From IMG/VR virus record IMGVR_UViG_3300021405_000010, positions 1 through 64,000 of that record: 64,000 nt of DNA. One strand, 5' to 3'. The number at the start of each line of letters is the position of its first letter. Position 1 is the stretch's first letter. This document shows positions 344 through 54,091 of this stretch, piece after piece. The DNA is from a virus. The notes below the pieces were generated by a model. That model was not told where the DNA came from and ran no database searches. It saw only the letters and a program-made list of their open reading frames with translations. The translations under genes and the position numbers were made by a program.

Positions 344-404
344 GTATGCTCAACGTTGCACCTTCGGCAATTTGCCGAAAAATCGGCTGATTTCCAAGGG
401 TTTA
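344..404 (+). repeat. Composite palindromic cassette, copy 1
   Basis: ATGCTCAACGTTG-N4-TTCGGCAATTTGCCGAA-aaatcGGCTGATTT; aligns with copies at 18808, 31396 and 54007. Confidence 0.9.
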
Positions 405-1121
405 CACGAGCAAATTGGCCCTTACCAGCTCCCGGCCATGACTCGTTTTGATGCCGTGAAAGAGGGCTGGCCGGGTGCCGTTTTTGCCGATTGTGACCCA
501 ATCGCCCTGGGTCATCTCGTGCCGGTTGTAGTGCTGGTAGATCAGGTCCGAATCCCGGGATAGGATGATGTAATGATCCCGGTAGAAGAAATCCCAGCCC
601 ATGGTCGAGGGGCCGATCAGGATGTTGGGGTGGTGGTCGATGAAGCGGGTCGAGAAGACGGCATTCCCGTTCATATGGAGGGTCTCGGGGCCCCCTTGCT
701 GGTGCCAGTGCCCGAAGGCCTCTTTCCCCAGGGCCTTGGTTTTCTCCCACTCATCGCTTAGCTGGTTAATCCAATCACGCCGCAAGGGGATACAGTCGGG
801 CTCAAAGAGGAGAAAGCCGTCACTCTTAACCATCTCCGCCTGGGCCAGGATCGACATCACCATGAAAGCGGAGTGGGCCAGCATGTTGGAGCCCCCGGGC
901 CAGCCGGTCTCATGGTTGTGCGCCATCCGGGCGTAAGCATGCTTAAAGCGCATCCGGGCCAGCCCCTCGAAATACTTAGGGCATCGGATATCGCAATCCT
1001 TGCGGTAGACCAGGACGAATTCACTGTCCCGGACGACAGGCTCCAGCTCGCAGATCAGCTTGGCCAGATCCATTCCGGCATCCAGATCCCCGGGGTATAC
1101 CTGAAGGCAAAGTGCTATCAT
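402..1121 (-). CDS. Putative glycosyltransferase-like (GT-A) protein
   Basis: GWPGGSN, FLLFEPDCIPL (ExD motif), HMNGNAV and terminal FHGIK; lies in a GT cluster. Confidence 0.55.
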   Translation of the reverse strand: MIALCLQVYPGDLDAGMDLAKLICELEPVVRDSEFVLVYRKDCDIRCPKYFEGLARMRFKHAYARMAHNHETGWPGGSNMLAHSAFMVMSILAQAEMVKSDGFLLFEPDCIPLRRDWINQLSDEWEKTKALGKEAFGHWHQQGGPETLHMNGNAVFSTRFIDHHPNILIGPSTMGWDFFYRDHYIILSRDSDLIYQHYNRHEMTQGDWVTIGKNGTRPALFHGIKTSHGRELVRANLLV

Positions 1122-1128
1122 TGTGGCA

Positions 1129-1887
1129 TCACAGTTTGGAGGTTAAGAATTTCTCCACTTCGGGACTCCAATCCCCGTGGCTCCAGTAGAGCCGGAAGGG
1201 CCAGTTGGCAGGCCGGTCGGTGTTCACCCGCAGAAAATAACGCTCCGGCTGGAATCTGATCGCGCACAGGTTTAAGGCCTCGTAATCCGCGAAGGTGACG
1301 GGGTGATTGAGGAAGCTGGCAAAATGGAATGGGGTATCGCTATAGACCGCCTCGTGGAAGCCCTGGCCGGTCACCTCGACGATCCGCTGCCGCGTCTTGG
1401 AGAAGGTGTCGCGCCAGAAACAGAAGGGGGCCTGGACCATGTAATCGCGATCCAGGTCCATTCCCATGACGCGCGAGGTGGATGCCCTCCACTTACGTTC
1501 GGCCACCGGGTCGCCCCGGTGCCACTCGCAGAATTCGACAATCGGCTTGCCGTCCCGTAAGAGCAAATCCAGGCTGGCCGGTTCCAGGAGCATCAGGTCG
1601 CTGTCACAGAGCACCAGCAGCTCGGCCCTAGAGTAATCGTCACTAATCATCTTCTGGTACATCTGGAAGGCGTAGCCGTCCGGCCAAGGGCGCACGTAAC
1701 GGTAAATAACCCTCGGCCCCAGCATCCAGTCAGCGATATCGGCCCGGCAGTCATCTTCCAGGCGGACGATGATGTTCCCTGGCGTTTGCCAGTTTTTTAG
1801 CAGGAGCCGCAGGTTCAAGTAGAGCCACGTCAGGTCTTTGCGGTGGCTCACGATCACTATGTCGCAGGAAGGCATAGGGCATCGCAC
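1129..1887 (-). CDS. Glycosyltransferase-like protein (DUF6492-like GT-A fold)
   Basis: DIVIVSH N-terminus, GYxxQMYQKM and VLCDSD (DxD) motifs. Confidence 0.65.
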   Translation of the reverse strand: MRCPMPSCDIVIVSHRKDLTWLYLNLRLLLKNWQTPGNIIVRLEDDCRADIADWMLGPRVIYRYVRPWPDGYAFQMYQKMISDDYSRAELLVLCDSDLMLLEPASLDLLLRDGKPIVEFCEWHRGDPVAERKWRASTSRVMGMDLDRDYMVQAPFCFWRDTFSKTRQRIVEVTGQGFHEAVYSDTPFHFASFLNHPVTFADYEALNLCAIRFQPERYFLRVNTDRPANWPFRLYWSHGDWSPEVEKFLTSKL

Positions 1888-2567
1888 TGAGCGCCTTCAA
1901 ACCCGTCCCAGCCGCCGCCCTGGGGGTAAAACTCCACCACCCGGTAAAGGAGGTCCTCTTCCAGGACAAGCCGCAGCTCCAGGTTGGAATAGCCCTGGCG
2001 TGCCAGGGCGATCGGGTTAATCTCCATCCAGATGGCAGGCCGGTTGCGCGCAATCGTCTGGCGAGCGCCCCGCAGAGCGGCTGGCTCACAACCCTCGATA
2101 TCGATCTTCATGAAGGACACATGGCCGCCAAAGACGCAGTTCTTGTCGAGCGTTATCTGGCGGACCATGCTCCCGGGCCACTGCAGCGCGGGGTCAATCA
2201 AGTGGCTACCGGCGACCGGTCCCGGCTGATGAAAAAGCATGCTTTGCCCTTCGGTTTCGCCCACCGCATACGGCAGGCAAAGTGCTCCTGGGCAATTGCG
2301 TTTCAGGCATTCAAACTGGACCGGGTGGGGCTCAAAGGCGACCACGGTTCCGGCGATCCCGAGATAAAACAGGGTGTGGTCACCGATCGCGGCTCCAAGG
2401 TCACAAACCCAGGACCCAACCTGAATATGAGGGCGAATCTTTTCTAAGACCGGCGTGTCATGATCAAGCCGGTGACCTTGCTCAACCCATCTGGACAGAT
2501 GGGTATCGTGCTTCAGGACCCACCAGCCTTCCGGCGTCTGCATGATCTGGTCGTCGATCGTGTTCAT
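1857..2567 (-). CDS. FkbM family methyltransferase
   Basis: DLGAAIGDHT, VAFEP, ITLD and FMKIDIEGCE...LRGARQTI...P.IWMEI motifs. Confidence 0.9.
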   Translation of the reverse strand: MNTIDDQIMQTPEGWWVLKHDTHLSRWVEQGHRLDHDTPVLEKIRPHIQVGSWVCDLGAAIGDHTLFYLGIAGTVVAFEPHPVQFECLKRNCPGALCLPYAVGETEGQSMLFHQPGPVAGSHLIDPALQWPGSMVRQITLDKNCVFGGHVSFMKIDIEGCEPAALRGARQTIARNRPAIWMEINPIALARQGYSNLELRLVLEEDLLYRVVEFYPQGGGWDGFEGAQCDALCLPAT

Positions 2568-2782
2568 TTTTTCACGTCAAACGAATGGAGCCCGGCCAGC
2601 GCCGTGACCAGGGCGGTGACCGCCAGTTGCATCTCTTTCAGGTTATCCCGGGAAAAGAAAGCGGTGCTCCAGAGCTTGCCCTGGCTCGGGATCTCGGTGA
2701 TCAAAAAGGTGAAGACAGGGAAGGCGAAAAAGTAGGTAATGGCCCCCCAGCGCAAAACCTTAAGCCAGAGGGGATCTTTCAT
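2564..2782 (-). CDS. Small two-TM membrane protein, holin-like
   Basis: Two hydrophobic segments; TALV.ALAGLHSFD ending; paralogue of 38537-38800. Confidence 0.5.
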   Translation of the reverse strand: MKDPLWLKVLRWGAITYFFAFPVFTFLITEIPSQGKLWSTAFFSRDNLKEMQLAVTALVTALAGLHSFDVKK

Positions 2783-2785
2783 AGC

Positions 2786-4195
2786 TTAGAGCGCCATTAA
2801 CGACTGGGTATGCTCCGGCATGAAGGCCATATTCCCAATGTGGCCACAGACTAACTGAGTGTCGAGCCAGATCGGGATCGAGCAGGCCCGGACCCGCTGA
2901 CAGAAGGCTTCGTCCTCACCTTCGTCGGCTTCGACATGAAAGAAGCGCCAGGGCGCAAATTCCGATTGCGGGGCCAAGTTAGGGAACCTACGCTGGACCT
3001 CCAGGAATACCTCCCGATGAACCAGAGCGCACCCGAAGCCCAGCCATTCGACCGCTGCCAATCCTTGCCCCTGACCGCGACGGATCTGATTGGCCAGGAG
3101 TTTGTCTTCGTGCGACCGAGGTTTGATTTCGGGCTGGATAACCAAGCTGCCGTGATAGCGGCGGCTTGCGTACACTCCGCCCACAATGGCCTTGCGGTGA
3201 CTCATCAGCCGCTCTAGGACATCAAAGTCGCAGCTTTCGTTGGCGATCGTAGTCGAGGCGGTGATCCACCTGAACCAGTTGCCGTTGGCGATCGGCGCGG
3301 CCATGTCAGAGTCAATCCACAGGCTCCAGAGGGCCCCGCTTTTTAAGAACCGCTGAGCCAGGACGTTCCGGGAGCGGTCGATCTTGGTGTCGGCCTGGAC
3401 GTCAAAGCCCAACTCATATTTTTTGGCGAGATAGAGCATGGTCCACATAAAGGGCAGCGTTGGCCGCTCCAGGATCGGCGCACAGACCATCACGTTGGTT
3501 TTGCCGCGATTGGGGTAGCTCCAGGTGCCGCCGTCCCCGTTGACGTCGAAGTGGGGCTCCAGGATCTCGATGATGTCGTCCCGGACCTCCGGCGCTTTCT
3601 GCAAGAACTTAACGATCGCGCCCAGGGGGATATTCGCCGGGTTCTGGCACCAATTCTTCAAAGTTTGCTGGCTTCGATCGTAGAACTTCTGGCAGGCTTC
3701 TGACTTCTCCCCACCCAGCTCAAAAATATGATCCAGGATTGCCTGAGTCAGGTCCAGTTGATGGTTTCGACCGTTTTTCTGGTCTGGTTGATTTATAGCC
3801 GCATCAACTGAACCAGAATTTTCGACTGGAGCGTCAACAATCCCAGGATTGACCGGCGGCGGAGCACTGGTCATAGGGTTGGTCTTAGTCGGTTCGACAA
3901 AGGTGCCGATCGTCGTCCGATTAGCGCCCGAGGGAGGCACCACCGCCATCGACGGGGCACCTTGCTCATCCTTCTTTGGCGGGACCACCATCATCGCCGG
4001 TTGGCCCCGGCCCACAATCTGCTGGATCACCACCCCTTCAGGGACCGGGGTGCCGGTCGGGATCTGGGCCTGTTTACTCGGGACACTCCCCTTTACCCCC
4101 GGCGCGTAGAGATCGCCTATCGGGGCCGGTTGCGGTGGGGCCCCTGTCTTATTGCCAAACTTTGCCTCCAAAGCCGCTGCGTCGATGTTGATCAT
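2786..4195 (-). CDS. Fusion: Pro-rich N-terminus, putative HTH, and C-terminal GT2-like glycosyltransferase
   Basis: RSRNVLA, LWIDSDM (DxD), IVGGVY, GFGCALVHREVF, GEDEAFC and CGHIG motifs; central EACQKFYDRSQQTLKNW..NP..IP looks HTH-like. Confidence 0.75.
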   Translation of the reverse strand: MINIDAAALEAKFGNKTGAPPQPAPIGDLYAPGVKGSVPSKQAQIPTGTPVPEGVVIQQIVGRGQPAMMVVPPKKDEQGAPSMAVVPPSGANRTTIGTFVEPTKTNPMTSAPPPVNPGIVDAPVENSGSVDAAINQPDQKNGRNHQLDLTQAILDHIFELGGEKSEACQKFYDRSQQTLKNWCQNPANIPLGAIVKFLQKAPEVRDDIIEILEPHFDVNGDGGTWSYPNRGKTNVMVCAPILERPTLPFMWTMLYLAKKYELGFDVQADTKIDRSRNVLAQRFLKSGALWSLWIDSDMAAPIANGNWFRWITASTTIANESCDFDVLERLMSHRKAIVGGVYASRRYHGSLVIQPEIKPRSHEDKLLANQIRRGQGQGLAAVEWLGFGCALVHREVFLEVQRRFPNLAPQSEFAPWRFFHVEADEGEDEAFCQRVRACSIPIWLDTQLVCGHIGNMAFMPEHTQSLMAL

Positions 4196-4599
4196 GTTGT
4201 TCCTTTCAGCCGGTGGAAACGGGCTAGGGCTCGCGTTCGTTCACAGACCCGGCACCGTCGCCGGTTGCTGCTTCCATACCGCGCTGTGTTCTCCTCGTTG
4301 TAGGGATGACCGGCGGGGCAGTGTGTTTTCGTTTCGTTGCCATTGGTGTTGGGAGGATGAAGTTTGCGGTGCTCGGATCGGGTTACGGCTTCGAGATGGT
4401 CAGGACAAACACATCTCCGGTTTTCACATTTGTGGTGGATCTCTTTGCCCTCGGGGATGGGTCCATTGAAGTAGCTGTAAACGAAAGCATGCTTTCCGTA
4501 GCCGCCAGAGCCTGTCGCTCCTTCCCAGATCCAGCAGTCACCAAAGACGGTCTGTTTGGCAATCTGGCCTAGCTGTTCATCCGCAGAGAGTTTTCTCAC
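4192..4599 (-). CDS. HNH endonuclease with Zn-finger tail (homing-endonuclease type)
   Basis: CWIWEG..GYG, GPIPEG.EIHHKCENRRCV.PDHLEAVT and KTHCPAGHPY...CRVC motifs. Confidence 0.85.
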   Translation of the reverse strand: MRKLSADEQLGQIAKQTVFGDCWIWEGATGSGGYGKHAFVYSYFNGPIPEGKEIHHKCENRRCVCPDHLEAVTRSEHRKLHPPNTNGNETKTHCPAGHPYNEENTARYGSSNRRRCRVCERTRALARFHRLKGTT

Positions 4600-5918
4600 G
4601 TGGTGCCATCCCCCCAGTCGTATTTCTCGAAGGAGCGTCTGACGTCTAAATCTTTGATACTCAGCCCTCCGTTGTTCTTCGCGGAGCTGGCAGGCGGGGT
4701 GCCGGTGGTGTGACTGATCTTGCGCCGGGCCCCGGTAATTTTATCGAGTTCCGTTTTAAACTGGTCACGCTCGGCCCTGACCGTTTTTAGCTCTTTTTCC
4801 ATCTCCTTATACTCGCCCTCCAGGAGCTGGGCCCTGGTGGCTTCGACAGAGGCGCGCACCCAGGCCTTGGGCCCGTTGTTACTCAGATCTTTCATGGTGT
4901 CCTGGAAGTAGGTGTTGAGCTTAGTGAACCGCTCGTTGTGAGCCTCGATCGCTTCCCGTTCTTCCTTGGTCTTGGCTTTCTCGGGGTCGCGCGGCAGGAC
5001 CTCCTGGATCCGTTTCTCCTGGATCCCGATCTCGGTCATGATCTCTTCGTGGACCCTTTTAGCGGTAGTCTCGGTCTTCTCCTTGATCCAGTTGTCGAAC
5101 GACGATTTGTCGTTGGTCCGCCGGGTGATCTCGGTGTCGCGCTCCTTCTGCATTTTGAGCAGGTTAGTGACACTCTGGAGAAGGCTCGCCCGGTCCATCT
5201 CGTTTGGCACCTTGGCGATTACACTGTTCTGCCACCAGTTGCGGTCGAGCGAGTCCGGGGAATAGTTCTCCGCGATGTATTTGGCCCAGGCCTGGGCGGC
5301 GGCCTTGTCCGGGAGCACCTCCACCGCTTCGTTTAAAACGGATTGAAAGGTGTTGTGGACCGGCTGATGGAATTTCTGGACGAAGTCCGGGTCGCTCGCG
5401 AAATCGAACTTCCGGCGGATCGCGGCGGCGTGCTCGTAGTCCGCCTTGACCTCTGGGGTCAGGGAATTGGCGCGCGCCTCGGCCAGCTCTTTTTCCAGCT
5501 TGGTCGCGCGGTCGGCCTCGGCCTTGGCTTTAGCCCGGTCGGCCTGCCAGAGGGCTTTGATGTCCGAGAACTGCTTCTTGATCTGCGGATTGTGGGGGTC
5601 TTCCTCCAGGTCCCCCCATTTATCGATCTCCTCGTCCGAAAGCTCTTTCGTTTCAGGAACCGGCTTAACCGTCTCGGTTTTCAGGGCAGGCGTCTCGGTG
5701 CGAACCCGTTTCGTCTCAGGTTTGGCCTCTTTCGTTTCCTGGGCCGCGCCGTCGCCGGGAGCCGCCGGGGCGCTGTCACCGGCCTTGTCATCTTCCTCCT
5801 TCCAGAAGTCCTCAAACTGGGCGTTTAGACTGGCGGCGACTTCCTTGTCTACCCCAGTGTCGGTAGTGACGGTTTCAGTGACCGTGCTCGTGTTTAATGG
5901 GGGATCCTCGTCGGGCAT
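4596..5918 (-). CDS. Putative scaffolding protein (acidic, coiled-coil)
   Basis: Acidic disordered N-terminus and long helical segments; located downstream of the portal. Confidence 0.55.
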   Translation of the reverse strand: MPDEDPPLNTSTVTETVTTDTGVDKEVAASLNAQFEDFWKEEDDKAGDSAPAAPGDGAAQETKEAKPETKRVRTETPALKTETVKPVPETKELSDEEIDKWGDLEEDPHNPQIKKQFSDIKALWQADRAKAKAEADRATKLEKELAEARANSLTPEVKADYEHAAAIRRKFDFASDPDFVQKFHQPVHNTFQSVLNEAVEVLPDKAAAQAWAKYIAENYSPDSLDRNWWQNSVIAKVPNEMDRASLLQSVTNLLKMQKERDTEITRRTNDKSSFDNWIKEKTETTAKRVHEEIMTEIGIQEKRIQEVLPRDPEKAKTKEEREAIEAHNERFTKLNTYFQDTMKDLSNNGPKAWVRASVEATRAQLLEGEYKEMEKELKTVRAERDQFKTELDKITGARRKISHTTGTPPASSAKNNGGLSIKDLDVRRSFEKYDWGDGTT

Positions 5919-5921
5919 ATG

Positions 5922-6209
5922 CTAGTCTTTCGTGGGATCAATCCCTTGCACGCTCGCGGAAACGGGTTCTCGCAGAGTCGTCCGGGTGTTGGAGATCTCT
6001 TCCCAGGCTTTCTCGTAGCCTGCGACCAAGCAGCCGGTTAAGGCCGCTCTCTCAGTGCTGGATTGATCGATCTTTGGTTTACGCGCCCAGAGCACCTGGA
6101 GCCACCTGATCCCTACCGGCGTACTAAGGAACTCGTTCACCGCCGCCGCTTCGCTCGGGCTCCAATCCTTCAGGGCCCCTACGGTTGGAATAAGTGGTTG
6201 CGGTTTCAC
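5922..6209 (-). CDS. Hypothetical protein between portal and scaffold
   Basis: Coupled to the portal stop; typical position and size. Confidence 0.6.
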   Translation of the reverse strand: MKPQPLIPTVGALKDWSPSEAAAVNEFLSTPVGIRWLQVLWARKPKIDQSSTERAALTGCLVAGYEKAWEEISNTRTTLREPVSASVQGIDPTKD

Positions 6210-8731
6210 TGGCCGCCTCCTGTCTGTGCGCCAGCCATTGCCCCGGCCCCGAGCCCTGGCGGCCCCGCAGAGCCGTTACCATTGCCGCCGGGCATCCCTG
6301 CCGCGTTATTGCCCATCGGAAGCCCCATGGGGCCGTGGATCGCTCCTGGAGGCCCTCCTGGCGCTGGCGCTCCGCCGGGCCCACCCGGCACTCCGGCCAC
6401 CCCGCCGGTCTGCTGGGCTAACATCTGCATCTGAGCCTGCATCATCTCGGCCTGTTGCACTTTCTGGACCAGCTCGTTTAGCATTTTCTCCAGGTCCTTC
6501 ATCTGGAGGATCTGGGGTTTAAGCTGCCGTTTATTGGCCCCGGCCTGCATCATTGCTTGGATGTGTGCCTCGGCATGCGTTGCCCCCAGCTTGCATGCCT
6601 GAAGTAGGTCTTTAGGGATCTGAACGGGAGGCATCTGAGAAGCAATTTTAAGGTGATCAGCCACCGCCGGAATAATGGTCTGGAAGTGTTGCATGTGTGG
6701 ATCGCGCTGGCTAACCTGCACACCGATCCCGCTCCCGAGCATGGTTGACCACTCCATTTGTTGCGACCTCTGGGCTTCGATATCGCTCGTCTGACTGGGC
6801 TGGGGCACATAGATCTCCTTGCACGTTTTAAACCCGATCATCCGGTTGGCCGCCATTTCGTCGAGCTTGGATTGGTCGAAGTTGGGGTTCTGCCGGGCCA
6901 GCTGGTAGAATTGCAAGAACATCATGTCGTCCTGGGCCCCGGCGGCTGCCGTAAATTCGGTGGCCGGTTCGTGGGCCAGGATAATGATCTCCTGGATCGA
7001 GAGCCCGTCATCCATCAGGGCGATGATGGTGTTGACGCTCGCTTCGTCCGCCTGGGCCAGATCGGGAGCCGCGACAAACATCTCAGAGGTCGTCGAATCG
7101 ACCTCCATCATGGCCGAATAGAGGTCCTTAGCGATCATCGTCTTACCGGTGTCGCTCGCCTTGAGCCGGGCCTTCCTCTGCTTGAGCGCGGCTCGCAAAT
7201 TAGTCTTGGAATAGATCCGCCGCTGCATCGAGCTAATCCCCTTAGTGAACTGAACCCACCAGCGGTTCATCATCCCCTGTTTAACCTCTTCCTCCTTGAC
7301 GGCATCGATCGACTCTTTAGTGGCCGTCTGGATCATCTGGCCATTGTTAGAGATCTGCTGCTGATCGGGCAGGAACGCTCCGGCGATGATTTCCGCCGTG
7401 TTAGTCATTTTCTGGTCTAACCCGAGCCAGTTGTTAATATCGACCCGGAACTGCTGCATGAGGAGCGTAAAGCCTTCCGGGACGATCATGAAAGGCGATT
7501 TCACATGCGGTTGCAAGCGCCCGATAATCGCCTCCTCGGCCTGCCCAACTAAGAGTCCCGAAATATACATCGCATCAATAAAGCTCATCCTGGCCTTCTC
7601 GGTGGCAAGGCTAATATTGTAGAGAAGCCTGCCAATCCCCTTAGAGCCAAATAACCGGTTATTCCCAGCCTGGAAGCTGAAGAGGGTAATCGCATCATCC
7701 ATCGCGGTCGCCACCGCCTCAAAGTACCCCAGCTCATAGGGGTCATCGTCCATCGGCTTAGGCTCGTCGCCAGACGGGTCAAATTCCGGCTTGGGTTTGG
7801 GCTTGTTGCGCTTTTCGCTCCGGCTCTGGTTATTGCTTCGCTTGCTCCCGTTGCGGTTGACCCACCAGTGGTCAACCGTGTTATCGTAGCACTTCACGAA
7901 AACGTGACACGTCTCAAGCATCTTGGAGGATTTATGAAAGGAGTAATAGAGGTTACCTTCCCGGACCATGTCGGAGAGCTGACGGGGATTGTAGACAAAA
8001 CTGTCATAGGGTGGAGCGGCTTTCTCGATCGCAGTCTTGATGTTCTGGACATTGTAGCCAGCTTCCTGGGCCGTATCGGCATCCTCGATGATCGCCACCG
8101 CCTCATGGATGTAATAGTTGGCTTTGATAACGAACACCGGCAGCTTTTCAGCGAGCTGCGGAGCCTGTTCATCAAAGAGCATATCCTCCTGCCGAAACGT
8201 CTTGGGACGCCACTCGTACTCGTCCATCTGGACGGCACCTGTGTAGCCGTAGAGCACGTTCTCGGTCGCTATCTGCTCAACATGGTCGATCCACCCGTTC
8301 CAGCTTCTGATCTGCTCCGTGGTGCGCTCCCGGAACTTCTGTGTTTTGTTGGTCGCCTCGACAAAACTGGCGGGCAGTTCAGACGCAGTGAGGTACTTCA
8401 TGCCGTGTACCGCATCGGTGAGTCTTGGCGTCACTCGATCTACGAATGTGGCCAGGACGAGCGTCGAGAAATTCGCACGCCAGCCCTGCTCCTGGGTGTC
8501 CAGCTTTTTCTGGTCAAATGGGTTCCCTCCGTTGTAGGAGTCAGTGATCAGCTTGTTGCGATTGGCCCGAGCTTGGTTATCGCGCTGCAGACGAGTGAAA
8601 ACCTCGAAAGCCTGCTGGGCGGAAGTGATCGGTTTATTTACGACCTCTGTGGAGTCCTCGCCAAACTTGGGGGTATTAAAGCGGCCTAACTGCTCGCCGC
8701 CAAAGGAGTCGGTGATGTTGTCGCTGGCCAT
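6206..8731 (-). CDS. Portal protein
   Basis: 841 aa, downstream of the terminase; Q/M-rich helical C-terminus with DPH..H motif and Gly/Pro tail as in P22-like portals. Confidence 0.75.
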   Translation of the reverse strand: MASDNITDSFGGEQLGRFNTPKFGEDSTEVVNKPITSAQQAFEVFTRLQRDNQARANRNKLITDSYNGGNPFDQKKLDTQEQGWRANFSTLVLATFVDRVTPRLTDAVHGMKYLTASELPASFVEATNKTQKFRERTTEQIRSWNGWIDHVEQIATENVLYGYTGAVQMDEYEWRPKTFRQEDMLFDEQAPQLAEKLPVFVIKANYYIHEAVAIIEDADTAQEAGYNVQNIKTAIEKAAPPYDSFVYNPRQLSDMVREGNLYYSFHKSSKMLETCHVFVKCYDNTVDHWWVNRNGSKRSNNQSRSEKRNKPKPKPEFDPSGDEPKPMDDDPYELGYFEAVATAMDDAITLFSFQAGNNRLFGSKGIGRLLYNISLATEKARMSFIDAMYISGLLVGQAEEAIIGRLQPHVKSPFMIVPEGFTLLMQQFRVDINNWLGLDQKMTNTAEIIAGAFLPDQQQISNNGQMIQTATKESIDAVKEEEVKQGMMNRWWVQFTKGISSMQRRIYSKTNLRAALKQRKARLKASDTGKTMIAKDLYSAMMEVDSTTSEMFVAAPDLAQADEASVNTIIALMDDGLSIQEIIILAHEPATEFTAAAGAQDDMMFLQFYQLARQNPNFDQSKLDEMAANRMIGFKTCKEIYVPQPSQTSDIEAQRSQQMEWSTMLGSGIGVQVSQRDPHMQHFQTIIPAVADHLKIASQMPPVQIPKDLLQACKLGATHAEAHIQAMMQAGANKRQLKPQILQMKDLEKMLNELVQKVQQAEMMQAQMQMLAQQTGGVAGVPGGPGGAPAPGGPPGAIHGPMGLPMGNNAAGMPGGNGNGSAGPPGLGAGAMAGAQTGGGQ

Positions 8732-8735
8732 AAAC

Positions 8736-8975
8736 TTATTTGGTAGGGGTTGAGCTTGGCAGCACAGTGGATTTCACCCCTTGGATTTCTTTCTCCAAGA
8801 TGGCCGTCTGCTGATTGACCAGGGTGCGGATATCGGCGGCTTTCTGCTCCATCAGGTTGGCTTTGGTGCCCATTACCTTTTCGATATCGACTGACTGCAG
8901 GACGTTGACGATCTGCAGAATCACCACGGCGATTCCGCCGATCACGGCGAGGGCTTGCTTGATCTGAGTGGTCAT
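8736..8975 (-). CDS. Small membrane-anchored coiled-coil protein
   Basis: Starts MTTQIKQALAVIGGIAVVILQIV; ATGA overlap with the upstream gene. Confidence 0.55.
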   Translation of the reverse strand: MTTQIKQALAVIGGIAVVILQIVNVLQSVDIEKVMGTKANLMEQKAADIRTLVNQQTAILEKEIQGVKSTVLPSSTPTK

Positions 8976-9592
8976 GCCTTCCAACAATGGGGTGGGGGAG
9001 GTTGTTCTGAAGTGGAATGGGTATCGGTGAGCCAGACGGCGACCTCGTTTAAGTGGCCGTAGAGGCGGCACATGAAAAGCCGCCGGTCCAAGGGCGTATA
9101 GAGTGATCCCTTGGCCTGCTGGATCCGGACCAGGATGTTGTCGTTGCAGGGGGCGCACGGAGTGGACCAGCGGACGTTCTGAGGGCACTGGACGCAAACT
9201 TGAGCCCGGTGCCCGGCCAGGGCGTAATCGACATGCTCGACCCGGGCATGGCCCAGCTGGGCTATCCACGCTCCGGCCCGGTCGATGGGACGGCTGTAAT
9301 CAGGCCGGTTTCCGATCCCCGGCGTAACGGCTGGCGGGGACCAGCTGTCGGCACAGTTCTGGCGGAAGTTGGCGCACAGATAGGTCTTCAAATCCGCGCG
9401 CACCGATTGGATGTTGGCGCTCGGGGCCCCGCATAATTCCAGGTGCCGTAAGCGGAAATCGAGGATGTTGGAGAGAAGCTCCTCGAAACTGTAAGCCGTG
9501 ATCTTGACCGACTGGCCGGTGCCCAGAGCTTGGGGGTAATGCCAGCCGCCCGGCATGACCACGGACGTAACGATGCCGTACTCGACAGACAA
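8972..9592 (-). CDS. Cys-rich hypothetical protein
   Basis: PGGWHY, CVQCPQN, CAPC and terminal HCWK; in the head operon. Confidence 0.65.
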   Translation of the reverse strand: MSVEYGIVTSVVMPGGWHYPQALGTGQSVKITAYSFEELLSNILDFRLRHLELCGAPSANIQSVRADLKTYLCANFRQNCADSWSPPAVTPGIGNRPDYSRPIDRAGAWIAQLGHARVEHVDYALAGHRAQVCVQCPQNVRWSTPCAPCNDNILVRIQQAKGSLYTPLDRRLFMCRLYGHLNEVAVWLTDTHSTSEQPPPPHCWKA

Positions 9593-9599
9593 AGTGATC

Positions 9600-9863
9600 T
9601 CAGATCTTTTTCTTGCTGAATGCGGGGACCGATTTCCCGGCTTTTCCGGAGCCGCTTTTGGCTGCCGGATGAGCAGGGTTGCCCTTTGCGGTGGTCTTGG
9701 TCAGGGTGGATTTCACCGGGTAATTGGCCGCCATGTGCGGCACTGCTTTACCTTTACCGGCATTGGTTGTTTTGACGTGGTCGGTAAAACCGGAGCGGGT
9801 CTTACTGCCGGTCATGATGCCGCCGCCGGTTGGTTTTTTGCTAAAGGCTGGGATCGATTTCAT
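9600..9863 (-). CDS. Small Lys-rich basic protein
   Basis: 87 aa, starting and ending with KS[IV]PAFSKK. Confidence 0.6.
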   Translation of the reverse strand: MKSIPAFSKKPTGGGIMTGSKTRSGFTDHVKTTNAGKGKAVPHMAANYPVKSTLTKTTAKGNPAHPAAKSGSGKAGKSVPAFSKKKI

Positions 9864-9985
9864 GGAGTGGATCGGAAGGACGCTAACCCGAGCTATACCC
9901 CCAAGGCGGCGTCCGTGCCAATAACAAAGGCTCCGGGTGACACAACCCGGAGCCTTTCTTGCTGCTACTGGTTTGGGAGAGTTTT

Positions 9986-10441
9986 TTAAGCTGGCGGTTG
10001 TGCCGGGGGTTGTGCTGCTGACTGGTCGCTGGGCGTCGGCACGTTGCCTGTCGGTATCCCAACGACAATCCATCCAGTTACCGGAGTCCATGCTGTCTTC
10101 CAATCAACTGGTCGGCTATCAGGTGCTGGTAGAGTTGGAGGAAGATCGGGCGGCAAGACAATTGGATGCGACGGGATCGGAGCCTGTCCTTCAGGCGGAT
10201 TGGGCCAAATACCGATGTCTGGCCTGTAGATCGGATGCGATGGGTGAGCGCCCGAAGGAGGTTGCGGTGATGGGCCTCCGATGTCCGGATAAGGTGGGTT
10301 TGGTCCGGGCCAGATTCCTGGAGGCTGTCCGCCGGGGGCAATAGGATGCGTAGGAATTGGGCCGCCGGGCATGGGGCCGCCACCTACTCCAACGTCGGAA
10401 TAGGTGAGGACGCCTTGGAAAGTTACGGGGATAGATGCCAT
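9986..10441 (-). CDS. Proline-rich PxHPI-repeat protein
   Basis: PTHPIA, PSHPIY and PSHPIV repeats; WKTAWTPVTGW C-terminal motif. Confidence 0.7.
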   Translation of the reverse strand: MASIPVTFQGVLTYSDVGVGGGPMPGGPIPTHPIAPGGQPPGIWPGPNPPYPDIGGPSPQPPSGAHPSHPIYRPDIGIWPNPPEGQAPIPSHPIVLPPDLPPTLPAPDSRPVDWKTAWTPVTGWIVVGIPTGNVPTPSDQSAAQPPAQPPA

Positions 10442-10486
10442 TTGAGATTCTCGCTTTCTGGTTGGTTGGGTTGAAAGACAGTCCTC

Positions 10487-12304
10487 TCAGAGGTCTTGAC
10501 TGAAGTCAATATAAGCCGTGCGTTCTCGTGGTCCGATATTGCCATCCGGGCCTTTAAATCTCGGAGCCTTGTTAGAGCCCAGCATCGAGGCTTTTTCGGG
10601 CCCGTTTAAGGCCGCGCCGTGCACCATCTGGACCATGGCATCCGCGATATCCGGGCTCCAGCCCAGGCGCTTCTTAAACTCTTTCTTGGGCTCCAGGCGG
10701 ATCCGGGGCTTTCCGCTTGGGCCCTTGGGCGCTGGCTGATACCGGCGGCCCGAAAGCTCTTTAAAAAGCTGTGAGGTCTGAATCTGGGGGTGGAACGCGA
10801 TGTGACCAAACTCCAGGAATTTGCGGACCCGGGCGTACATCTCGGTATCGATCCCGTCGTAGATCTCGACCGCATAATCGTGGTCGTCGGCCAGGATCTT
10901 GCGGTTCCCGGCTTCCGCGCCCCACTGGATGCCGCGCACCGAGCCGCTCCACTGCTCCATCAAGGCGTCATGGGTGCCGGTGCCAACCCCGGTCCGGTCA
11001 CAGGTCGTCCAGTCTGGGTTAATGTTCAAGCCTTTCAACTTGTGCTCGATCGAGTTGGCCAGGGCGATCGTTTTCTCTTTGGGCATCTCGAAATACTGGT
11101 CGCACTGGATGGTGTAGCGGGGCTTCTGCCAGAGGACCGGCTTACCATTTAAGGGCTGAAAGCCGATCGCTTTCCCGTACCGGCCAACGAAGACGATGAT
11201 CCGGTCTCCCCCTTCAAAAGCCAGATCAATCCCGCCGCACCCGATGGTCCTCCCGCTAAACATAAACTGGCCGATCACCTCCTCCAGGAGGCTGTAGGGG
11301 ATTAGGGTGTTCTGGAGCGCCGTGAGCGGGTACATGCCCCTGCCAAAGGTTAGATACTTCGGGCTCTGCCCACCCAGCTCCAGGGCGAACTTCTGGTAGC
11401 CATCCCAGGTTAAAAAACCCGGGAAAACCAGTTTGCGCTCGATCACGTTTTCGCAATCGGTCCCGTCTAGGCGTAACACATTCCACCTTTCACTCGAGAC
11501 CCACTCTTTATCCTTATCCAGGTTGACGGTGGTCCAGCCGTTGACCGGTTCGGCCAGCTGGGCCAGCTTCGAGGTGACATCCCGAGGGTTAGTCGCGCAC
11601 ATGACCTTGACCGCTTCCGCGCCCCAAGCTGATGCCAGGAGGTTGCTAACGCCTTCCCAAACGCCTGAAGGAATTTCTTCCGCTTCGTCCAGTACGGCGC
11701 GTACCCGCGACATGGATCCAAAAAGAGGGTGGGCGTTGTTCCGAGGTACGGGATGAAAACCTTGTAGTACACCTCGTCCATCCTCACCTTGTGGGATGGC
11801 GACCAGTGTGATTGCCGAATGTCGATCCTTTGGATTGAGACCGACAAATCCGTCCATACTGAGACCCGGTAAGGGGATAATAGCGGCCTTATAGAGGCGT
11901 TGGAGCGTCGAAAAGCTCTGGCTCTTCGCATGGCCGCCGGTCGTACTGATGATCTTGATTTCGGTGTACTCGGGGTCGCGGATCCAGTCGAGCAGGACAT
12001 AGCAAATCAGGCTGTAGGTTTTACCCATCGCCGCCGCGCCTAAGACGATCAGGTTCTGGGTGGTCCTGGCAGTGTGGAGGAGCTGCTGGACGGCGCGGGG
12101 CCCGGCATTAAAGAGCTTGTCTCCCCAGATTAGGAGTCCCGCCAAGCCGTAACGTTCGGTGTCCAGTAACCGCTTAATCAAGAACCAGATCCAGGTCCGG
12201 GCCTGATCGGGGTGCTGGACGGAAGGGTCGTACACGCTGACCGCGCGAACGACCTCCTCGTCAGTGCCCTCCCCGCAATCACGCCTGAACTTTACGAGAT
12301 CCAC
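10487..12304 (-). CDS. terL: Terminase large subunit
   Basis: Walker A GAAAMGKT, Walker B AVLDEAEEI, motif III ATNP, RNase H-like GIDLA..GGD and SPDIADA. Confidence 0.92.
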   Translation of the reverse strand: MDLVKFRRDCGEGTDEEVVRAVSVYDPSVQHPDQARTWIWFLIKRLLDTERYGLAGLLIWGDKLFNAGPRAVQQLLHTARTTQNLIVLGAAAMGKTYSLICYVLLDWIRDPEYTEIKIISTTGGHAKSQSFSTLQRLYKAAIIPLPGLSMDGFVGLNPKDRHSAITLVAIPQGEDGRGVLQGFHPVPRNNAHPLFGSMSRVRAVLDEAEEIPSGVWEGVSNLLASAWGAEAVKVMCATNPRDVTSKLAQLAEPVNGWTTVNLDKDKEWVSSERWNVLRLDGTDCENVIERKLVFPGFLTWDGYQKFALELGGQSPKYLTFGRGMYPLTALQNTLIPYSLLEEVIGQFMFSGRTIGCGGIDLAFEGGDRIIVFVGRYGKAIGFQPLNGKPVLWQKPRYTIQCDQYFEMPKEKTIALANSIEHKLKGLNINPDWTTCDRTGVGTGTHDALMEQWSGSVRGIQWGAEAGNRKILADDHDYAVEIYDGIDTEMYARVRKFLEFGHIAFHPQIQTSQLFKELSGRRYQPAPKGPSGKPRIRLEPKKEFKKRLGWSPDIADAMVQMVHGAALNGPEKASMLGSNKAPRFKGPDGNIGPRERTAYIDFSQDL

Positions 12305-12539
12305 GGCGTTTAAGTTCCCAGGCCGCCGCGCCCACTAGGAACATCGCTCCCAGGATGAGTGCAGGGTTGGCCTCGGGTACGACCGGCGGAACTTTAGAGG
12401 TGATGTAATTACCGATCGAGCGTTCGTACTCGTAAGTACCCAGGCCCGGAGGGTAACCATGAAAGGTGAGACAATTTTGTTCGGCTTTGACCGTCATGGT
12501 CAAAACACACATTAGTGCTGCTACGGTTAGTTGCTTCAT
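12279..12539 (-). CDS. Mini PEP-CTERM-like exported protein
   Basis: Signal peptide MKQLTVAALMCVLTMTVKA; C-terminal VPEA followed by a hydrophobic helix and KRR. Confidence 0.7.
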   Translation of the reverse strand: MKQLTVAALMCVLTMTVKAEQNCLTFHGYPPGLGTYEYERSIGNYITSKVPPVVPEANPALILGAMFLVGAAAWELKRRGSRKVQA

Positions 12540-12655
12540 ACGTTGAGCATGAAATACGGATTATCAACGTTCATCTTTAGGACGAAGTGCCTCTACTACG
12601 AGCCGGGCGGCTTCCAGATCAAGAAAATAAGCCACCGTGATCCCCAGCCGGTCGA

Positions 12656-14541: not shown

Positions 14542-14580
14542 TTTATGAGGTAGAGCAGATTCTCCTGGCGTTGGCCACTC

Positions 14581-14919: not shown

Positions 14920-14922
14920 AAA

Positions 14923-18808: not shown

Positions 18809-18893
18809 ATAACGTTATACTCAGGGGTATGCCCAACGTTGCACTGTCGGCAATTTGCCGAAAATTCGGCTGATTTTGAGGCACTTGCGTAAG
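18808..18893 (+). repeat. Composite palindromic cassette, copy 2
   Basis: TATAACGTTATAC-N8-ATGCCCAACGTTG-N5-TCGGCAATTTGCCGAA-aattcGGCTGATTTTGAGGCACTTGCGTAAG. Confidence 0.9.
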
Positions 18894-18938
18894 GAAAAAG
18901 GGCAAATCTAACGTTATACCAGGATTACGCATATAACG

Positions 18939-44018: not shown

Positions 44019-45833
44019 TTACCAGCCGGTGTCTGCTGTGAAATGCCATTGGTAATTGGCGTTGCTGGCATTTTGAGTTGTCGTAGAAAAACCACCAAAT
44101 CCTCGCACCCCAACTACCTGTGCGGCGGCAATGGCCCGACTGGTGGTTGCCGTGGCATCATAGAGAGCGTTAATTGCCCCGGTGTTACCGTTGTAGCCTG
44201 TCATCGTCGGTGTTTTCGCCATTATTTTTGGAAACGAAATCGGCAAAATTGGGTTAGCACCTCCTACGATAAGATGATAGATCATCCCTGGACTGCTAAC
44301 CGTACCGGGAGCAACATTGTAGTCATAGCTTTTGCAGTAATACCGCAGACACTCGTCGAGATTCTGGGAGAACGGCCTGTCGATAAAGGGTGAACAAACC
44401 GGCCCAGGTTCATGCTGAGCGGCATAAAACCCCCACGAATTACCAACGGTAGCTAGCGAGTTTAAATTATTCGCAACTCTTTGATCGCCGGTCACCCACT
44501 GGTTAGGAGTTGCCGTGTTGTAAGTAGAGCCTGCCCCAAAGCAAAAGCCCAAAATGTATCCGGTTGTTCCCGGCTGATTGGCGAAGGCCATGCTGCTCGG
44601 CCAAACGGGGATATTTGGGAAAGTGAAGACGGTCAGCGTGTTGGCCACCGGAGCAACAGGGATGACGTAAGAATTCGCTCTCCCGGAATCCTGCAAATAA
44701 ATGCAAAATGGAACGCCTGCCCCACTAATCATGGTGACCGAGAGCGAGGTCGCTCCTCCGCTGATCGGGCGGTACATCGGCCCTTCGATATACTGCTCAA
44801 CGCAATAATAATCTCCTGCAGCCAAGCTCGCTTGAGCCGTCGAAACCGACATTTGCAACGAATTGCGGGTGAAAACGTAGGTCGTTCCAGGAATGCTCGC
44901 TTTCGTATTGGACTGGGACCCATTGACCACTGCGGTTAACCCCGCCGATCTGACCGCAAACCATCGATCAAGAATACGTCCAGCCGTTCCGAGAGGATTA
45001 GCCGCAAACAGAGCTGTCTGGGTTACTTCAAAATTCGGGTTCCCCACGGCGTTGACGGTATTCAGCCGAAGAGTCCAGATAGAAGATCGCGGCACCAGAA
45101 CCTGGGAATCTGAACCAAGGATGGCGATATTACCCACATCGGTACTGACAGCAGTAGGACCAGGGGTCCCTTGAGGTCCAGTGGGTCCAGCAGGTCCTTG
45201 CGATCCGGTTGCGCCGGGAGTGCCTTGCGGTCCACTGGAGCCTGCAGGTCCTTGTGGTCCTGCAGCGCCGGTATTGCCTTGTGGCCCTTGTGGACCGGTC
45301 GCGCCGGGCGTTCCCTGTGGTCCGCTGGCACCCGTATTGCCCGTGGGTCCTGCGGGTCCTGCGGGTCCGGGGACTGTACTGGCCGCTCCCTGTGGTCCAG
45401 GAGGTCCCTCTGGCCCTTGTGGCCCCTGAATCTGGCCGATATCCACCCATGCGGTGCCGTTCCAGACCCAGGCGTGTCCGGTATCCAGTGCAGTGTAGCA
45501 ATCGTTAGGCGAATTGCCGCTCGCAGGAAGACTGGCGGCGGTTGGCACCGTGCCTTTCATGTTGAGACCAGTCCCGGCTGGTCCCTGTGGCCCCTGGGCC
45601 CCTGGTGGCCCTTGAATACCTTGGGGACCGGTGCCTCCCTGTGGTCCGGCTAGTCCCTGCGGCCCCTCCGGCCCAACTGCTCCCTGTGGCCCCTGGATGG
45701 AGAATTTCTCGATATCCTCGTAGATCGTGAACAGGCAGTTAGTCTGCAGTTCGTGCGCGTAAAGGTTCTCGTCCTGGCCGATGTACCACGTCAGCTGGGC
45801 AGGACCGCCGATCACGTCTACTGGGAGCGGCAT
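44019..45833 (-). CDS. Collagen-repeat tail fibre protein
   Basis: GPQ repeats; C-terminal N.NFEV.Q...DRW...CLRYY...TADTGW domain. Confidence 0.8.
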
Positions 45834-52201: not shown

Positions 52202-52259
52202 AAAGCGTTGGGCATAACCACTTGACCCACAACAGCCCACAGGTCTATGGTGGGCGATT

Positions 52260-52451
52260 GTGCCAAGTTTAACGAACATCACGTTCCCCGATGAACTGTC
52301 TCCCGCTTTGCGCGAAGCGGTTGAGCACTACGGCTTTGAGAGTCTGGCCGCGTACTTCCGAATCTGCGGCCACGTCCTTCTTCAGCACCGCAAGCGGGAC
52401 GAGTCCCTGACTCTTCCGCTCACCTTTTTATGCAAGCCAAAACAAAAGTAA
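52260..52451 (+). CDS. RHH-like small regulator
   Basis: TNITFPDEL...LREAV..YGFESLAAYFR; upstream TTGACC-N18-TATGGT at 52222-52251. Confidence 0.55.
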   Translation: MPSLTNITFPDELSPALREAVEHYGFESLAAYFRICGHVLLQHRKRDESLTLPLTFLCKPKQK

Positions 52452-52945
52452 GAGACCGCAAATTCATGGGCATCCCGGTGCGTGAGGCACGGGCCGCGAT
52501 GCACGTCCAACCCAATAAAGATGACATCAAAGGTGCCACCAAAGAGGACCCCGAAAACTGTGCCTACGCGCGCTGCCTGAAACGGACACTGGACTGTCAG
52601 AATGTCTTTGTTTTCAGGTCAGTCGCCTATGTGGAAACCCTGGACGAACAGGGCAACCGGCTGATGGAACGCTACATGGTCAGAAAGCACGCCAAGGACT
52701 ACCTCTTGAAGTTCGACGGGGGTGAAAGGGTTGGGCCCGGAGGCTTTGTCTTCCATGTGCCCCAACACGCCAAAACGCTTGATTACAAGATATCAGACTA
52801 CCAAAGGCGAAAGAAGGCCGGTAAACCAACCAGCGGCCCCAAGAACACCGGGGCAAGGTTAGCTAAGCCCAAGTCCTACAATCTCAGGGACGGTAAAGGA
52901 GCCGTCCATTTCATCACCGCTGAACTGATCAGGGTCCACCGATGA
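52430..52945 (+). CDS. Hypothetical protein
   Basis: DP.NCAYAR motif. Confidence 0.6.
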   Translation: MQAKTKVRDRKFMGIPVREARAAMHVQPNKDDIKGATKEDPENCAYARCLKRTLDCQNVFVFRSVAYVETLDEQGNRLMERYMVRKHAKDYLLKFDGGERVGPGGFVFHVPQHAKTLDYKISDYQRRKKAGKPTSGPKNTGARLAKPKSYNLRDGKGAVHFITAELIRVHR

Positions 52946-53056
52946 GTGAACCCAACTATTTCGGCCAGCTGATCGGCATTCTTCACGTTGAGGAATTACT
53001 CCGCTTGCAAAAGCGATGCCGGATGCAGAAGAAAGTCGTCCTGGCGGCGATCCTGA

Positions 53057-53407
53057 ATGATGAAATCGAGGAGCGGGAGGGTATGGCTAGTGATGGAAAA
53101 GCATGACGCATTTAGCCAGCTCAACTCCGAAGACCAGAAGGCGGCAATCGATGTGGCGGTTGCCGCTGTCCTGATCGGCCTGCGGATCCCCTCTACGGGA
53201 AAACCCCTCTACGACTGGATGGCGACCGAATTCTCCAGCACCCGCACCCTGCCGCCCAACGTCGTTAAATACGCTCTGCGGAGCCTGGGGCAGGCCCTCT
53301 TCCGGCAGAACTGGACCCTGGTGATCGAGAAGGATAAAGACGGCATCATCACCAAATTCACGCCGGAATGGAAGGAGGGAGACGATGGCGACCAAATCCT
53401 ACAATAG
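53057..53407 (+). CDS. Hypothetical protein
   Basis: ORF; start uncertain. Confidence 0.5.
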   Translation: MMKSRSGRVWLVMEKHDAFSQLNSEDQKAAIDVAVAAVLIGLRIPSTGKPLYDWMATEFSSTRTLPPNVVKYALRSLGQALFRQNWTLVIEKDKDGIITKFTPEWKEGDDGDQILQ

Positions 53408-53684
53408 CCGCGACATGCCGGTGATGGCCAAGCAGTGCTCGACCTGTGTGTTTGCCAAAAAGGAGGACGGTAAATGGTTAAACCCGGAGCTGGCCGAGAT
53501 GGTGGAGGAGCGGATGCTCAGGGTCTCCCAGATCTGCCATCACCCGGCGCTCAAGGGTAAAAAGCAGACTCACCTTTGCCGAGGCACCCGCGACCGGCAG
53601 ATCGAGTACTTCTACCGGATCGGGTTCCTGCCGGAGTGCACCGATGAAGCTTGGCAGGCCAAGCGGAAGGAGCTGGGTTGTTGA
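53385..53684 (+). CDS. Cys/His-rich phage protein
   Basis: PVM.KQCSTC.F...ICHH...LCRG.RD motif. Confidence 0.65.
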   Translation: MATKSYNSRDMPVMAKQCSTCVFAKKEDGKWLNPELAEMVEERMLRVSQICHHPALKGKKQTHLCRGTRDRQIEYFYRIGFLPECTDEAWQAKRKELGC

Positions 53685-53840
53685 AGGACTGGACCACCCG
53701 CGACTGGACCAGCGTCATCTGCGGCTGGATCGGCGGGATGATTGCCGTCGAGGTCATCCCGGAGAGCGGGTACAAGCTGGTCCTGGTCTTTTTCGCCGGG
53801 TTCTGCGTAGCCTGGGCCATACGCGGCCTGATCCCGCGCT

Positions 53841-53880
53841 AAACGAAGAAGCCGTCCAGGATTCCGAGGCCCTGGACGGC
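53841..53880 (-). terminator. Hairpin between convergent gene blocks
   Basis: GCCGTCCAGG/CCTGGACGGC 10-bp stem with a U-rich tail on the minus strand. Confidence 0.55.
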
Positions 53881-54006
53881 AAGTCGTATGCAAGTCAAAT
53901 AAACAAACCGTAGTTGTTCCCGATAGGAACTAAACAGATTCACTCATTATACCCGGTTGAAAGACTCGCATTCGGTAGAGGGAAAATCAAGAAAAGAGTG
54001 TTTTTG

Positions 54007-54091
54007 CTTACGCAAGTGCCTCAAAATCAGCGTTTTTTTCGGCAAATTGCCGAACCTGCAACGTTGAGCATGCCCACGGGTATAACGTTAT
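54007..54091 (-). repeat. Composite palindromic cassette, copy 4 (inverted)
   Basis: Reverse complement contains all sub-boxes with the same N8 spacing as copy 2. Confidence 0.9.

Follow-up and report, generated by a model that had tools for sequence, protein, structure and literature searches.

A composite palindromic cassette repeated at gene-block junctions in an uncultured soil phage and its relatives

Introduction

Almost nothing is known about how transcription is organised in uncultured soil phages that lack recognisable regulators. In the genome of one such phage, designated g0 here, four copies of a composite cassette built around a 17-bp palindrome are dispersed at gene boundaries, and the question is what they do there. 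The sequence analysed, called the window throughout, is a 64,000-base stretch (bases 1-64000) of the 77,711-bp IMG/VR virus record IMGVR_UViG_3300021405_000010. An initial annotation had described the cassette as a multi-protein DNA-binding platform and had listed a parS-like centromere among its possible functions. The cassette is a real, clade-wide element and, in agreement with the first of these descriptions, its behaviour is that of a double-stranded DNA site for several factors. By analogy with plasmid systems, it may be a regulatory platform.

Bases 1-68 of the record are the same as 77517-77584, and 328-444 the same as 77596-77711 (self-BLAST). The contig ends therefore overlap and the genome assembles as a circle. 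The assemblies show circular permutation and have the look of a lytic phage with headful packaging. Few proteins of the window have a PHROG or Pfam match; those that can be named are tail fibres, a helicase, a RecT-like protein and an O-acetyltransferase. No RNA runs with phage sequence were listed.

Anatomy of the cassette

The elements of the cassette are box 1 (ATAACGTTAT), box 2 (ATGCYCAACG), a 17-bp palindrome (TTCGGCAATTTGCCGAA), whose dyad in g0 is TTCGGCAA-T-TTGCCGAA, and a last box (GCTGATTT-NN-AGGCACTTGCGTA). The four copies are oriented + + - -, and box 1 is attached in copies 2 and 4 only (Table 1). The spacing is exact, although the letters of the spacers differ: 8 nt separate box 1 from box 2 in copies 2 and 4, and in all copies there are 4 nt between box 2 and the palindrome and 5 nt between the palindrome and the last box. 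The copies are 86-93% identical in pairwise comparison over 48-91 bp (self-BLAST). Because the boxes and their spacing are kept while the spacers vary, the element has been selected and is not the result of a recent duplication. The initial annotation had drawn the same conclusion, and its four copies, the fragment at 34154, the box spacing, the variable spacers and the restriction of box 1 to copies 2 and 4 were all found again.

All motifs of the cassette are far above chance in the window. The palindrome, with up to three mismatches allowed, gives 9 strand-matches (0.23 expected), which come from four loci with 0-1 mismatch and one unrelated 3-mismatch match at 15295. The last box is found 4 times (0.00 expected), in three cassettes and in the 34154-34176 fragment. 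Box 1 with at most one mismatch has 12 matches (0.39 expected), and box 2, in the form ATGCBCAACG, has 12 as well (0.52 expected). The cassette is a mosaic of independent motifs. Two of them, the 17-bp dyad and the last box, are specific to it, as the initial annotation had seen for the full palindrome; boxes 1 and 2 occur outside it as well.

Table 1. Positions of the cassette copies, stand-alone sites and associated genes in the window
Feature	Position	Strand	Description
Cassette copy 1	344-410	+	Box 2, 17-bp palindrome, diverged last box; between Arc-like gene (115-342 +) and stop of gene 402-1121(-)
Cassette copy 2	18808-18893	+	Box 1, box 2, palindrome (1 mismatch), last box; occupies gap from 294-aa gene (18939-19823 -) to start codon of 97-aa gene (18515-18808 -)
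Cassette copy 3	31396-31461	-	Box 2, palindrome, last box
Cassette copy 4	54007-54091	-	Box 1, box 2, palindrome, last box
Cassette fragment	34154-34185	-	AAACGTTG joined directly to last box (2 mismatches; 34154-34176), no palindrome
ATAACGTTAT-type sites beside copy 2	18908-18917, 18933-18942		Second contains stop codon of 294-aa gene
Other ATAACGTTAT sites	31303-12, 31371-80, 31506-15, 33632-41, 34117-26, 34860-69		
Full box-2 palindrome, stand-alone	55150-55167		In spacer of TTGATC-18-TATAAT-GTCAT-ATG, promoter-like start of gene 54658-55140(-)
Other stand-alone box 2 sites	12541-50(-), 22249-58(+), 29649-58(-), 29778-87(+), 52206-15(-), 54642-51(-), 61050-59(-)		
Late-operon promoter region	52203-52262	+	Orthologue of that in g1/g2; CCACTTGAC..., sigma-70-like
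Conserved 97-aa gene	18515-18808	-	Start codon abuts or lies inside cassette in relatives with cassette there
294-aa protein	18939-19823	-	ParB/KorB/SopB-like DNA-binding domain, residues ~8-153; candidate palindrome binder
199-aa protein	31909-32508	+	Sigma region-4-like helix-turn-helix, then 46-residue helix

On the circular genome, copy 1 lies upstream of the promoter and leader of a capsid-like gene. Its last box shares sequence with the stop codon and 3' end of gene 402-1121(-) and is diverged for that reason. An apparent fifth copy at genome positions 77610-77711 is the same locus as copy 1, since the contig ends overlap. Copy 3 starts 8 nt past the stop of a DUF3846-like gene, 31469-31891(-), and is followed by TTGCGT-17-TATAAC-GTCAT-ATG. 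Box 1 of copy 4 contains the TAA stop of open reading frame (ORF) 54088-54651(-), and this copy is positioned both at the convergent junction with the + block 52260-53913 and at a breakpoint of a large inversion relative to two related genomes, g1 and g2. The fragment is in a small-gene region that also contains three ATAACGTTAT sites.

Box 2 is half of an 18-bp palindrome, which in relatives has the form ATGCGCAACGTTGCGCAT. It stands alone at 8 sites of the window, often at promoters, and in most cases a start codon is no more than about 30 nt away. Clusters of ATAACGTTAT sites are found at copies 2, 3 and 4, and another in the small-gene region at 33.6-34.9 kb. They overlap -10-like hexamers of starts that look leaderless (TATAAC-GTTAT-ATG at 18808, TATAAC-GTCAT-ATG at 31371), as well as two stop codons. 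Avoidance or methylation of a restriction site, AACGTT, was considered and rejected, as its 27 sites are near expectation (20.4).

Conservation among related phages

Relatives were found with a helicase query and a capsid-like protein query. Six near-complete genomes were fetched whole and, with g0, make up a seven-genome set in which the proteins of the relatives are ~30-97% identical to those of g0. Scans of IMG/VR and JGI data added eight further junctions.

Each of the six relatives has its own 2-5 dispersed copies of the cassette. By ORF orthology their positions are syntenic in the six that have both kinds of junction: the junction of the 294-aa and 97-aa genes, the neighbourhood of the 199-aa gene, and the late operon, at its start or end. 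The cassette is also found upstream of the 97%-conserved capsid-like gene (20 loci). The last box, in the form GCTGATTT..RSCACTTRCG, is kept in all six relatives and box 2 in most of them, whereas the central dyad is phage-specific. Its types include TCGGCG-CGC-CGCCGA, TTCCGT-T-ACGGAA, CCTCCGAT-ATCGGAGG, ACCCCAA-T-TTGGGGT, AGTCGGCA-TTC-TGCCGACT, GAGGCAA-T-TTGCCTC and CTTAAGAATTC. The expectation that related phages would carry the element was therefore borne out only for an equivalent cassette with its own palindrome at the same junctions; the identical sequence is missing from them. Distant relatives do not share the box spacing, which is conserved within any one genome. Exact 17-mer and 15-mer searches of IMG/VR returned only chance matches with unrelated flanks, and a megablast search with the copy-2 region gave no match in phage and plasmid collections.

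The dyad and the last box differ in how they vary. In a comparison of g0 with g3, the central 30 nt are 87% identical between paralogues and 62% between orthologues, whereas the corresponding values for the last box are 71% and 72%. The closer pair g1 and g2, which have a common dyad type, shows no such contrast between paralogues and orthologues.

The orientation of the cassette is variable. In L218 the whole cassette is flipped at an orthologous junction, where the start codon of the 97-aa gene is inside the last box. Genomes g5 and g3 differ in orientation at the copy-3-type site, their overall patterns being - + + - and + - + +, respectively. g4 and L070 have box 2 inverted with respect to the dyad. 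The arms of the dyad can be AT-rich and as short as 4 bp, for example in L214 and L218.

The mosaic palindromic layout, the intergenic positions and the occurrence in both orientations would also suit a host-derived selfish repeat of the REP/BIME or MITE kind with no function in the phage. This origin is hardly credible, given that the positions are syntenic across phages at 30-60% protein identity and that no transposase was seen. Furthermore, a search of genomes from 185,579 species did not find the 25-nt core, and the matches to the 17-mer in them are scattered, with one per stretch except for a single tandem pair. The element is not a detectable host repeat.

A second, unrelated soil metagenome (run X2, 2021) contains a diverged relative, a contig of which matches window positions 18738-18840 up to box 1. 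The unaligned continuation of this contig runs through a box-2-like motif and diverges from the window at about that point. In g3 (44200-44275, L074) a cassette at the end of the late block abuts what appears, when read by eye, to be a tRNA 3' end (GGTTCGAATCC).

Recognition as DNA or as RNA

A palindrome between genes could act either as double-stranded DNA or as a hairpin in the transcript. The flipped orientations, the 4-bp stems and the small number of terminator-like copies together argue for recognition of the cassette as double-stranded DNA rather than RNA. Copies 1 and 2 of g0 are antisense to the flanking genes, and copies 3 and 4 are sense. Most copies have a dyad. A hairpin followed by a T-run was found in only 4 of 28 copies, for which reason an intrinsic-terminator model was rejected, and there was none within the cassette on the other strand. 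In g0 the one hairpin that fits an intrinsic terminator is the second of copy 2, which is weak.

An element acting at the RNA level might be a nut-like antitermination site, a hairpin for RNase processing or stabilisation, or an attenuator with a short reading frame. The combination of a conserved box with a phage-specific hairpin does recall boxA and boxB, and in g0 and g3 two mutually exclusive hairpins can form, the second of which is followed by TGATTTT. Between the ATG of box 2 and the TGA in GCTGATTT there is a 14-codon frame, which is kept in the four copies of g0, in two of g3 and in one of g4. The frame is lost, however, where box 2 is inverted together with its ATG (g4 and L070) and also in g5, and we therefore regard it as a by-product of the fixed spacing; a 14-codon leader peptide was rejected on the same grounds. 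The orientation relative to local transcription varies both within g0 and at orthologous junctions, unlike the fixed orientation of nut-like sites, and three of the four g5 copies have no hairpin. The fold z-scores of copies 2-4, from -1.3 to +0.1, are not significant, and no Rfam family matches the cassette. Taken with these results, an RNA-level role is improbable.

Candidate binding proteins

The gene next to copy 2 encodes a 294-aa protein, which the initial annotation had called DUF3102/ParB-HTH-like. The resemblance to ParB/KorB-type helix-turn-helix proteins is seen with structural models, but not at the level of Pfam: the Pfam scan of the protein was empty, and neither ParB_N nor DUF3102 detected it. 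The AlphaFold model has a pLDDT of 79. VIA-align gives Z-scores of 8.7 with Spo0J (root-mean-square deviation 2.9 over 108 residues), 8.7 with ParB-parS, 6.9 with KorB-operator and 5.8 with SopB-DNA. The gene is 45 bp from the 17-bp dyad. Homologues number more than 40, those with 60-73% identity being on contigs of ~75 kb, and at 31-38% identity the protein is among the most diverged of the conserved proteins.

The predicted recognition helix of the 294-aa protein shifts together with the neighbouring dyad in 12 phages. The helices DLRTYRR of g0 and DIRTYRR of L215 both occur with the dyad CGGCAA-N-TTGCCG. L214, although closer overall (70% identity), has Val in place of the first Arg (NIVTYRR) and the dyad AACCAA-A-TTGGTT. 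The helix RR[NS]VKAAMA of g5 and L219 is found with CGAT-ATCG, and [DE]PRS..R of L217 and g3 with TCGGC[AG]-NNN-[TC]GCCGA. This co-change is suggestive of the 294-aa protein as the binder of the dyad.

The second candidate is the 199-aa protein, which is present in 7 of 7 genomes, its gene being close to a cassette of the copy-3 type in 6 of them. With Z-scores of 6.4-7.4, the domain in it resembles sigma region 4 and helix-turn-helix domains of the KorA type. Since the protein is conserved, is encoded near the cassette and has a conserved recognition helix, it is a candidate binder of a clade-conserved box. Sigma region 2 (PF04542) was not detected in g0. A T7-type RNA polymerase (PF00940) was not matched in g0 either, in a search that missed its controls too.

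The same protein could be read as a small terminase and the cassettes as pac sites, or else the cassettes as primosome-type hairpins oriented with the replication forks. The helix-turn-helix followed by a long helix is indeed reminiscent of small terminases (G20C TerS, Z 5.9), the nearness of the gene to a cassette in six genomes would fit, and the + + - - pattern is compatible with two replichores. A packaging or replication signal is very unlikely nevertheless. There are four sites and not one, the 199-aa gene is never beside the gene of the large terminase (TerL), which is always preceded by a 112-aa gene, and the matches of the 199-aa protein are dominated by sigma region 4. The orientation patterns are inconsistent among relatives, and the replichore idea was rejected for this reason.

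A proposed regulatory platform at transcription-unit junctions

We favour the reading that the cassette is a KorB-operator-like regulatory platform at the junctions between transcription units, and consider its chances to be about even. It starts from observations: the anatomy and statistics of the cassette, its clade-wide syntenic conservation, the genome-specific dyad, the orientation flips and the fold similarity of the 294-aa protein. The pairing of boxes with proteins, the repressive effect, the direction of regulation and the mechanism as a whole are what we infer from them. A composite, orientation-independent, protein-binding DNA platform would mark the main transcription-unit junctions in the clade. 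The phage-specific dyad would most likely be the operator of the adjacent 294-aa protein, and box 1, box 2 and the last box would be independent sites flanking it. Either RNA polymerase or the 199-aa protein, which is sigma region-4-like, may bind the last box. Once occupied, these sites would repress, insulate or time the transcription that crosses the junctions, and those controlled would be at the capsid gene, the replication block, the early region and the start or end of the late operon.

Several points weigh against this reading. Raf1 scores higher than any of the ParB-type proteins in comparisons with the 294-aa protein (Z 9.5), and helical domains can reach such Z-scores by their common arrangement. 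The Foldseek E-values of the protein exceed 0.1. The correlation between helix and dyad comes from 12 phages and is confounded by their relatedness, and g3, L206 and L216 have no cassette beside the 294-aa gene. To act at long range KorB requires an N-terminal CTPase domain, which the protein lacks. The T-runs that follow the dyads of some relatives look terminator-like.

A fuller version of the regulatory platform is put forward as a tentative and rather doubtful extension. Two proteins, one with a ParB fold but no CTPase domain, the other free-standing and sigma region-4-like, might co-occupy about four invertible, portable cassettes, which would insulate or silence whole gene blocks, so that a plasmid-style operator network would run the temporal programme of a lytic clade. 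Specificity changes of helix and dyad, together with cassette-mediated inversion of the structural block, would then drive diversification.

The system is compact and testable, with about four sites per genome, one of which has the gene of a candidate ParB/KorB-fold binder as its neighbour. Nature also provides specificity variants (helix Arg to Val with dyad CGG to AAC) and orientation flips. If the regulatory platform is real, it would extend ParB-fold operator networks, hitherto a plasmid feature, to lytic phages and provide a worked case of regulator-site co-evolution. If the cassettes are punctuation only, the finding is an ordinary one.

Comparison with known systems

The KorB/KorA network of the IncP plasmid RK2 appears to be the closest functional analogue of the cassette, and the PeSL elements of T4-type phages its closest structural analogue among phages. 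In RK2, KorB, which has a ParB-family DNA-binding domain, recognises a palindromic operator (OB) of ~16 bp that is dispersed near to or far from promoters (PMC11790492). At some places OB is beside OA, the operator of a second small helix-turn-helix regulator, KorA, and the network exerts global control over replication and transfer-type modules (PMC11790492). The dispersed-operator arrangement is seen here also, with four g0 dyads at unit junctions and the g1 and g2 copies near the late and capsid promoters. Boxes 2 and 1, with their fixed 4-nt and 8-nt spacings and their additional stand-alone sites, might be compared with the second operator. In contrast to RK2, g0 is a phage and not a plasmid, the 294-aa protein has no CTPase N-domain, a ParA/IncC partner is lacking and there are only ~4 sites. 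Furthermore, the dyad is phage-specific and part of a fixed multi-box cassette, and binding is predicted.

The phage-plasmid N15 encodes SopA and SopB, has a plasmid prophage state and carries four SopB inverted repeats, IR1-4 (PMC7205306). Four dispersed inverted repeats and a candidate binder with a ParB/SopB-like DNA-binding fold are common to N15 and g0, and centromere-like or genome-organising sites, at which a ParB-like protein on four dyads would segregate, position or compact the genome, have to be weighed for this reason. Such a function is quite improbable. ParA (PF13614) had no match in five genomes (G000-G003 and G005), although all 14 control genomes responded. The ParB N-domain (ParB_N, PF02195) had no match in g0, g1, g2 and g3, and only a sub-threshold match in g5, in an unrelated 415-aa ORF. 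No tyrosine integrase or other marker of a plasmid or prophage lifestyle was found in g0, which shows no sign of plasmid maintenance, and the assemblies look lytic. The parS-like centromere of the initial annotation fails because ParA and the ParB N-domain were not found.

Stoperators of cluster A mycobacteriophages (L5, Bxb1) are asymmetric 13-mers that are bound by a monomeric immunity repressor and oriented with transcription in temperate phages; many copies are scattered between genes all along the genome, besides the operators close to promoters (PMC9283540). The ATAACGTTAT sites (extended form GGTATAACGTTAT) and box 2 resemble them somewhat as dispersed intergenic sites. The cassettes differ in being dyads with free orientation, in a phage with no integrase or lysogeny module found. 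Stoperators and the N15 sites have only the idea of dispersed sites in common with the cassette.

Promoters near the cassette and inversion of the late block

The last box is rich in T- and A-tracts, and its end is a -35-like CACTTGCG, resembling the CACTTGAC promoters of the clade. The initial annotation had likened this part to an IHF-type site; even WATCAR-N4-TTR, a relaxed form of the consensus WATCAA-N4-TTR, gives 4 matches in the window and none in a cassette, and the suggestion was abandoned. Promoter models in both orientations were rejected for want of a consistent -10, and a consensus scan found no promoter in copies 2-4. Only copy 3 gives a -35/-10 pair (TTGCGT-17-TATAAC). In g1 and g2 the late promoter TTGACG-17-TAGGGT is directly abutted by a full cassette, whereas g0 keeps box 2 only. 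At the capsid-like gene, the cassette is 25-60 bp upstream of a sigma-70-like promoter, cTTGCnn-17-TAnnnC, and a structured leader, both of which are conserved.

g0 and g3 have the whole structural and late block (402-12902 and 54658-64000, continuing to genome position 77341) in the opposite orientation to that of g1, g2 and g5. The inversion parts the first late genes (52260-53913) from the terminase genes, and genes specific to g0 (13003-15285) are found at one of its junctions. Cassettes are positioned at the breakpoints, namely copy 4 of g0 and those at 5688 and 44275 in g3, so that three of the four inversion junctions in g0 and g3 have a cassette, and none of the corresponding g1 junctions. 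Inversion between opposed copies, which the initial annotation had proposed to look for, was not seen: contigs from the source sample show only cross-alignment of the repeats, and a 39.4-kb contig keeps the reference order.

These relationships bring the PeSL elements into consideration. PeSLs of phages RB49 and phi1 consist of a consensus sigma-70 promoter and an effective terminator stem, and are present in ~50 copies, mostly in hyperplastic regions (PMC2839356). With that precedent (PMC2839356), the cassette could be a mobile regulatory unit that acts mainly as transcription punctuation, a stem-loop attenuator with promoter parts that is spread and homogenised by recombination and serves as a substrate for module shuffling. 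Like PeSLs, it is short, repeated and intergenic, fills stop-to-start gaps and combines a dyad with promoter-like parts (the last box and the TTGCGT-17-TATAAC-5-ATG after copy 3), and it may be linked to rearrangement of modules through the breakpoints of the late block. Its copies are homogenised within a genome. The class fails, however, because a complete promoter is not present in every cassette, and in neither orientation do the copies keep a common -35/-10 pair. Terminator-like copies are a minority, and sequence rather than structure is conserved, down to the dyad itself within a genome. There are, moreover, 3-5 copies at core junctions compared to ~50 for PeSLs. We regard a PeSL-like cassette as unlikely, if conceivable, and retain the operator platform as the preferred reading.

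Other features of the genome

The capsid-like protein (window 76166-77341 equivalent, L039:16166-17407) is 93-97% identical in most relatives and 67-71% in five distant ones, the other proteins of the capsid-sharing relatives being 30-80% identical. Its start codon appears to be TTG or ATT in g0 and is ATG in relatives. The 5' leader of the gene (window 1-68 and L039:17342-17560, genome 77342-77560, minus strand) is downstream of the sigma-70-like promoter. It contains two helices, GCAG..CUGC and GCCY..RGGC, whose pairing is kept by compensatory changes in 11 phages, and it corresponds to no Rfam family.

Window positions 69-342 are a 273-bp segment in which an Arc-like ribbon-helix-helix gene (phrog_3180) lies inside TGACATGTCA-type flanking repeats. 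One contig end has this insertion, which separates cassette copy 1 from the capsid promoter, and the other has 24 nt in its place. Contigs of the source soil sample include the two forms at similar depths (~6 and ~7), and the segment is therefore a population polymorphism.

Several genes (window 55140, 25180, 18808 and 31371) look leaderless, with a -10 hexamer 5-6 nt before the ATG and no Shine-Dalgarno sequence. Starts of this type include TATAAT-GTCAT-ATG and CACTTGACA-17-GAGAAT-6-ATG, and they may hint at the nature of the host.

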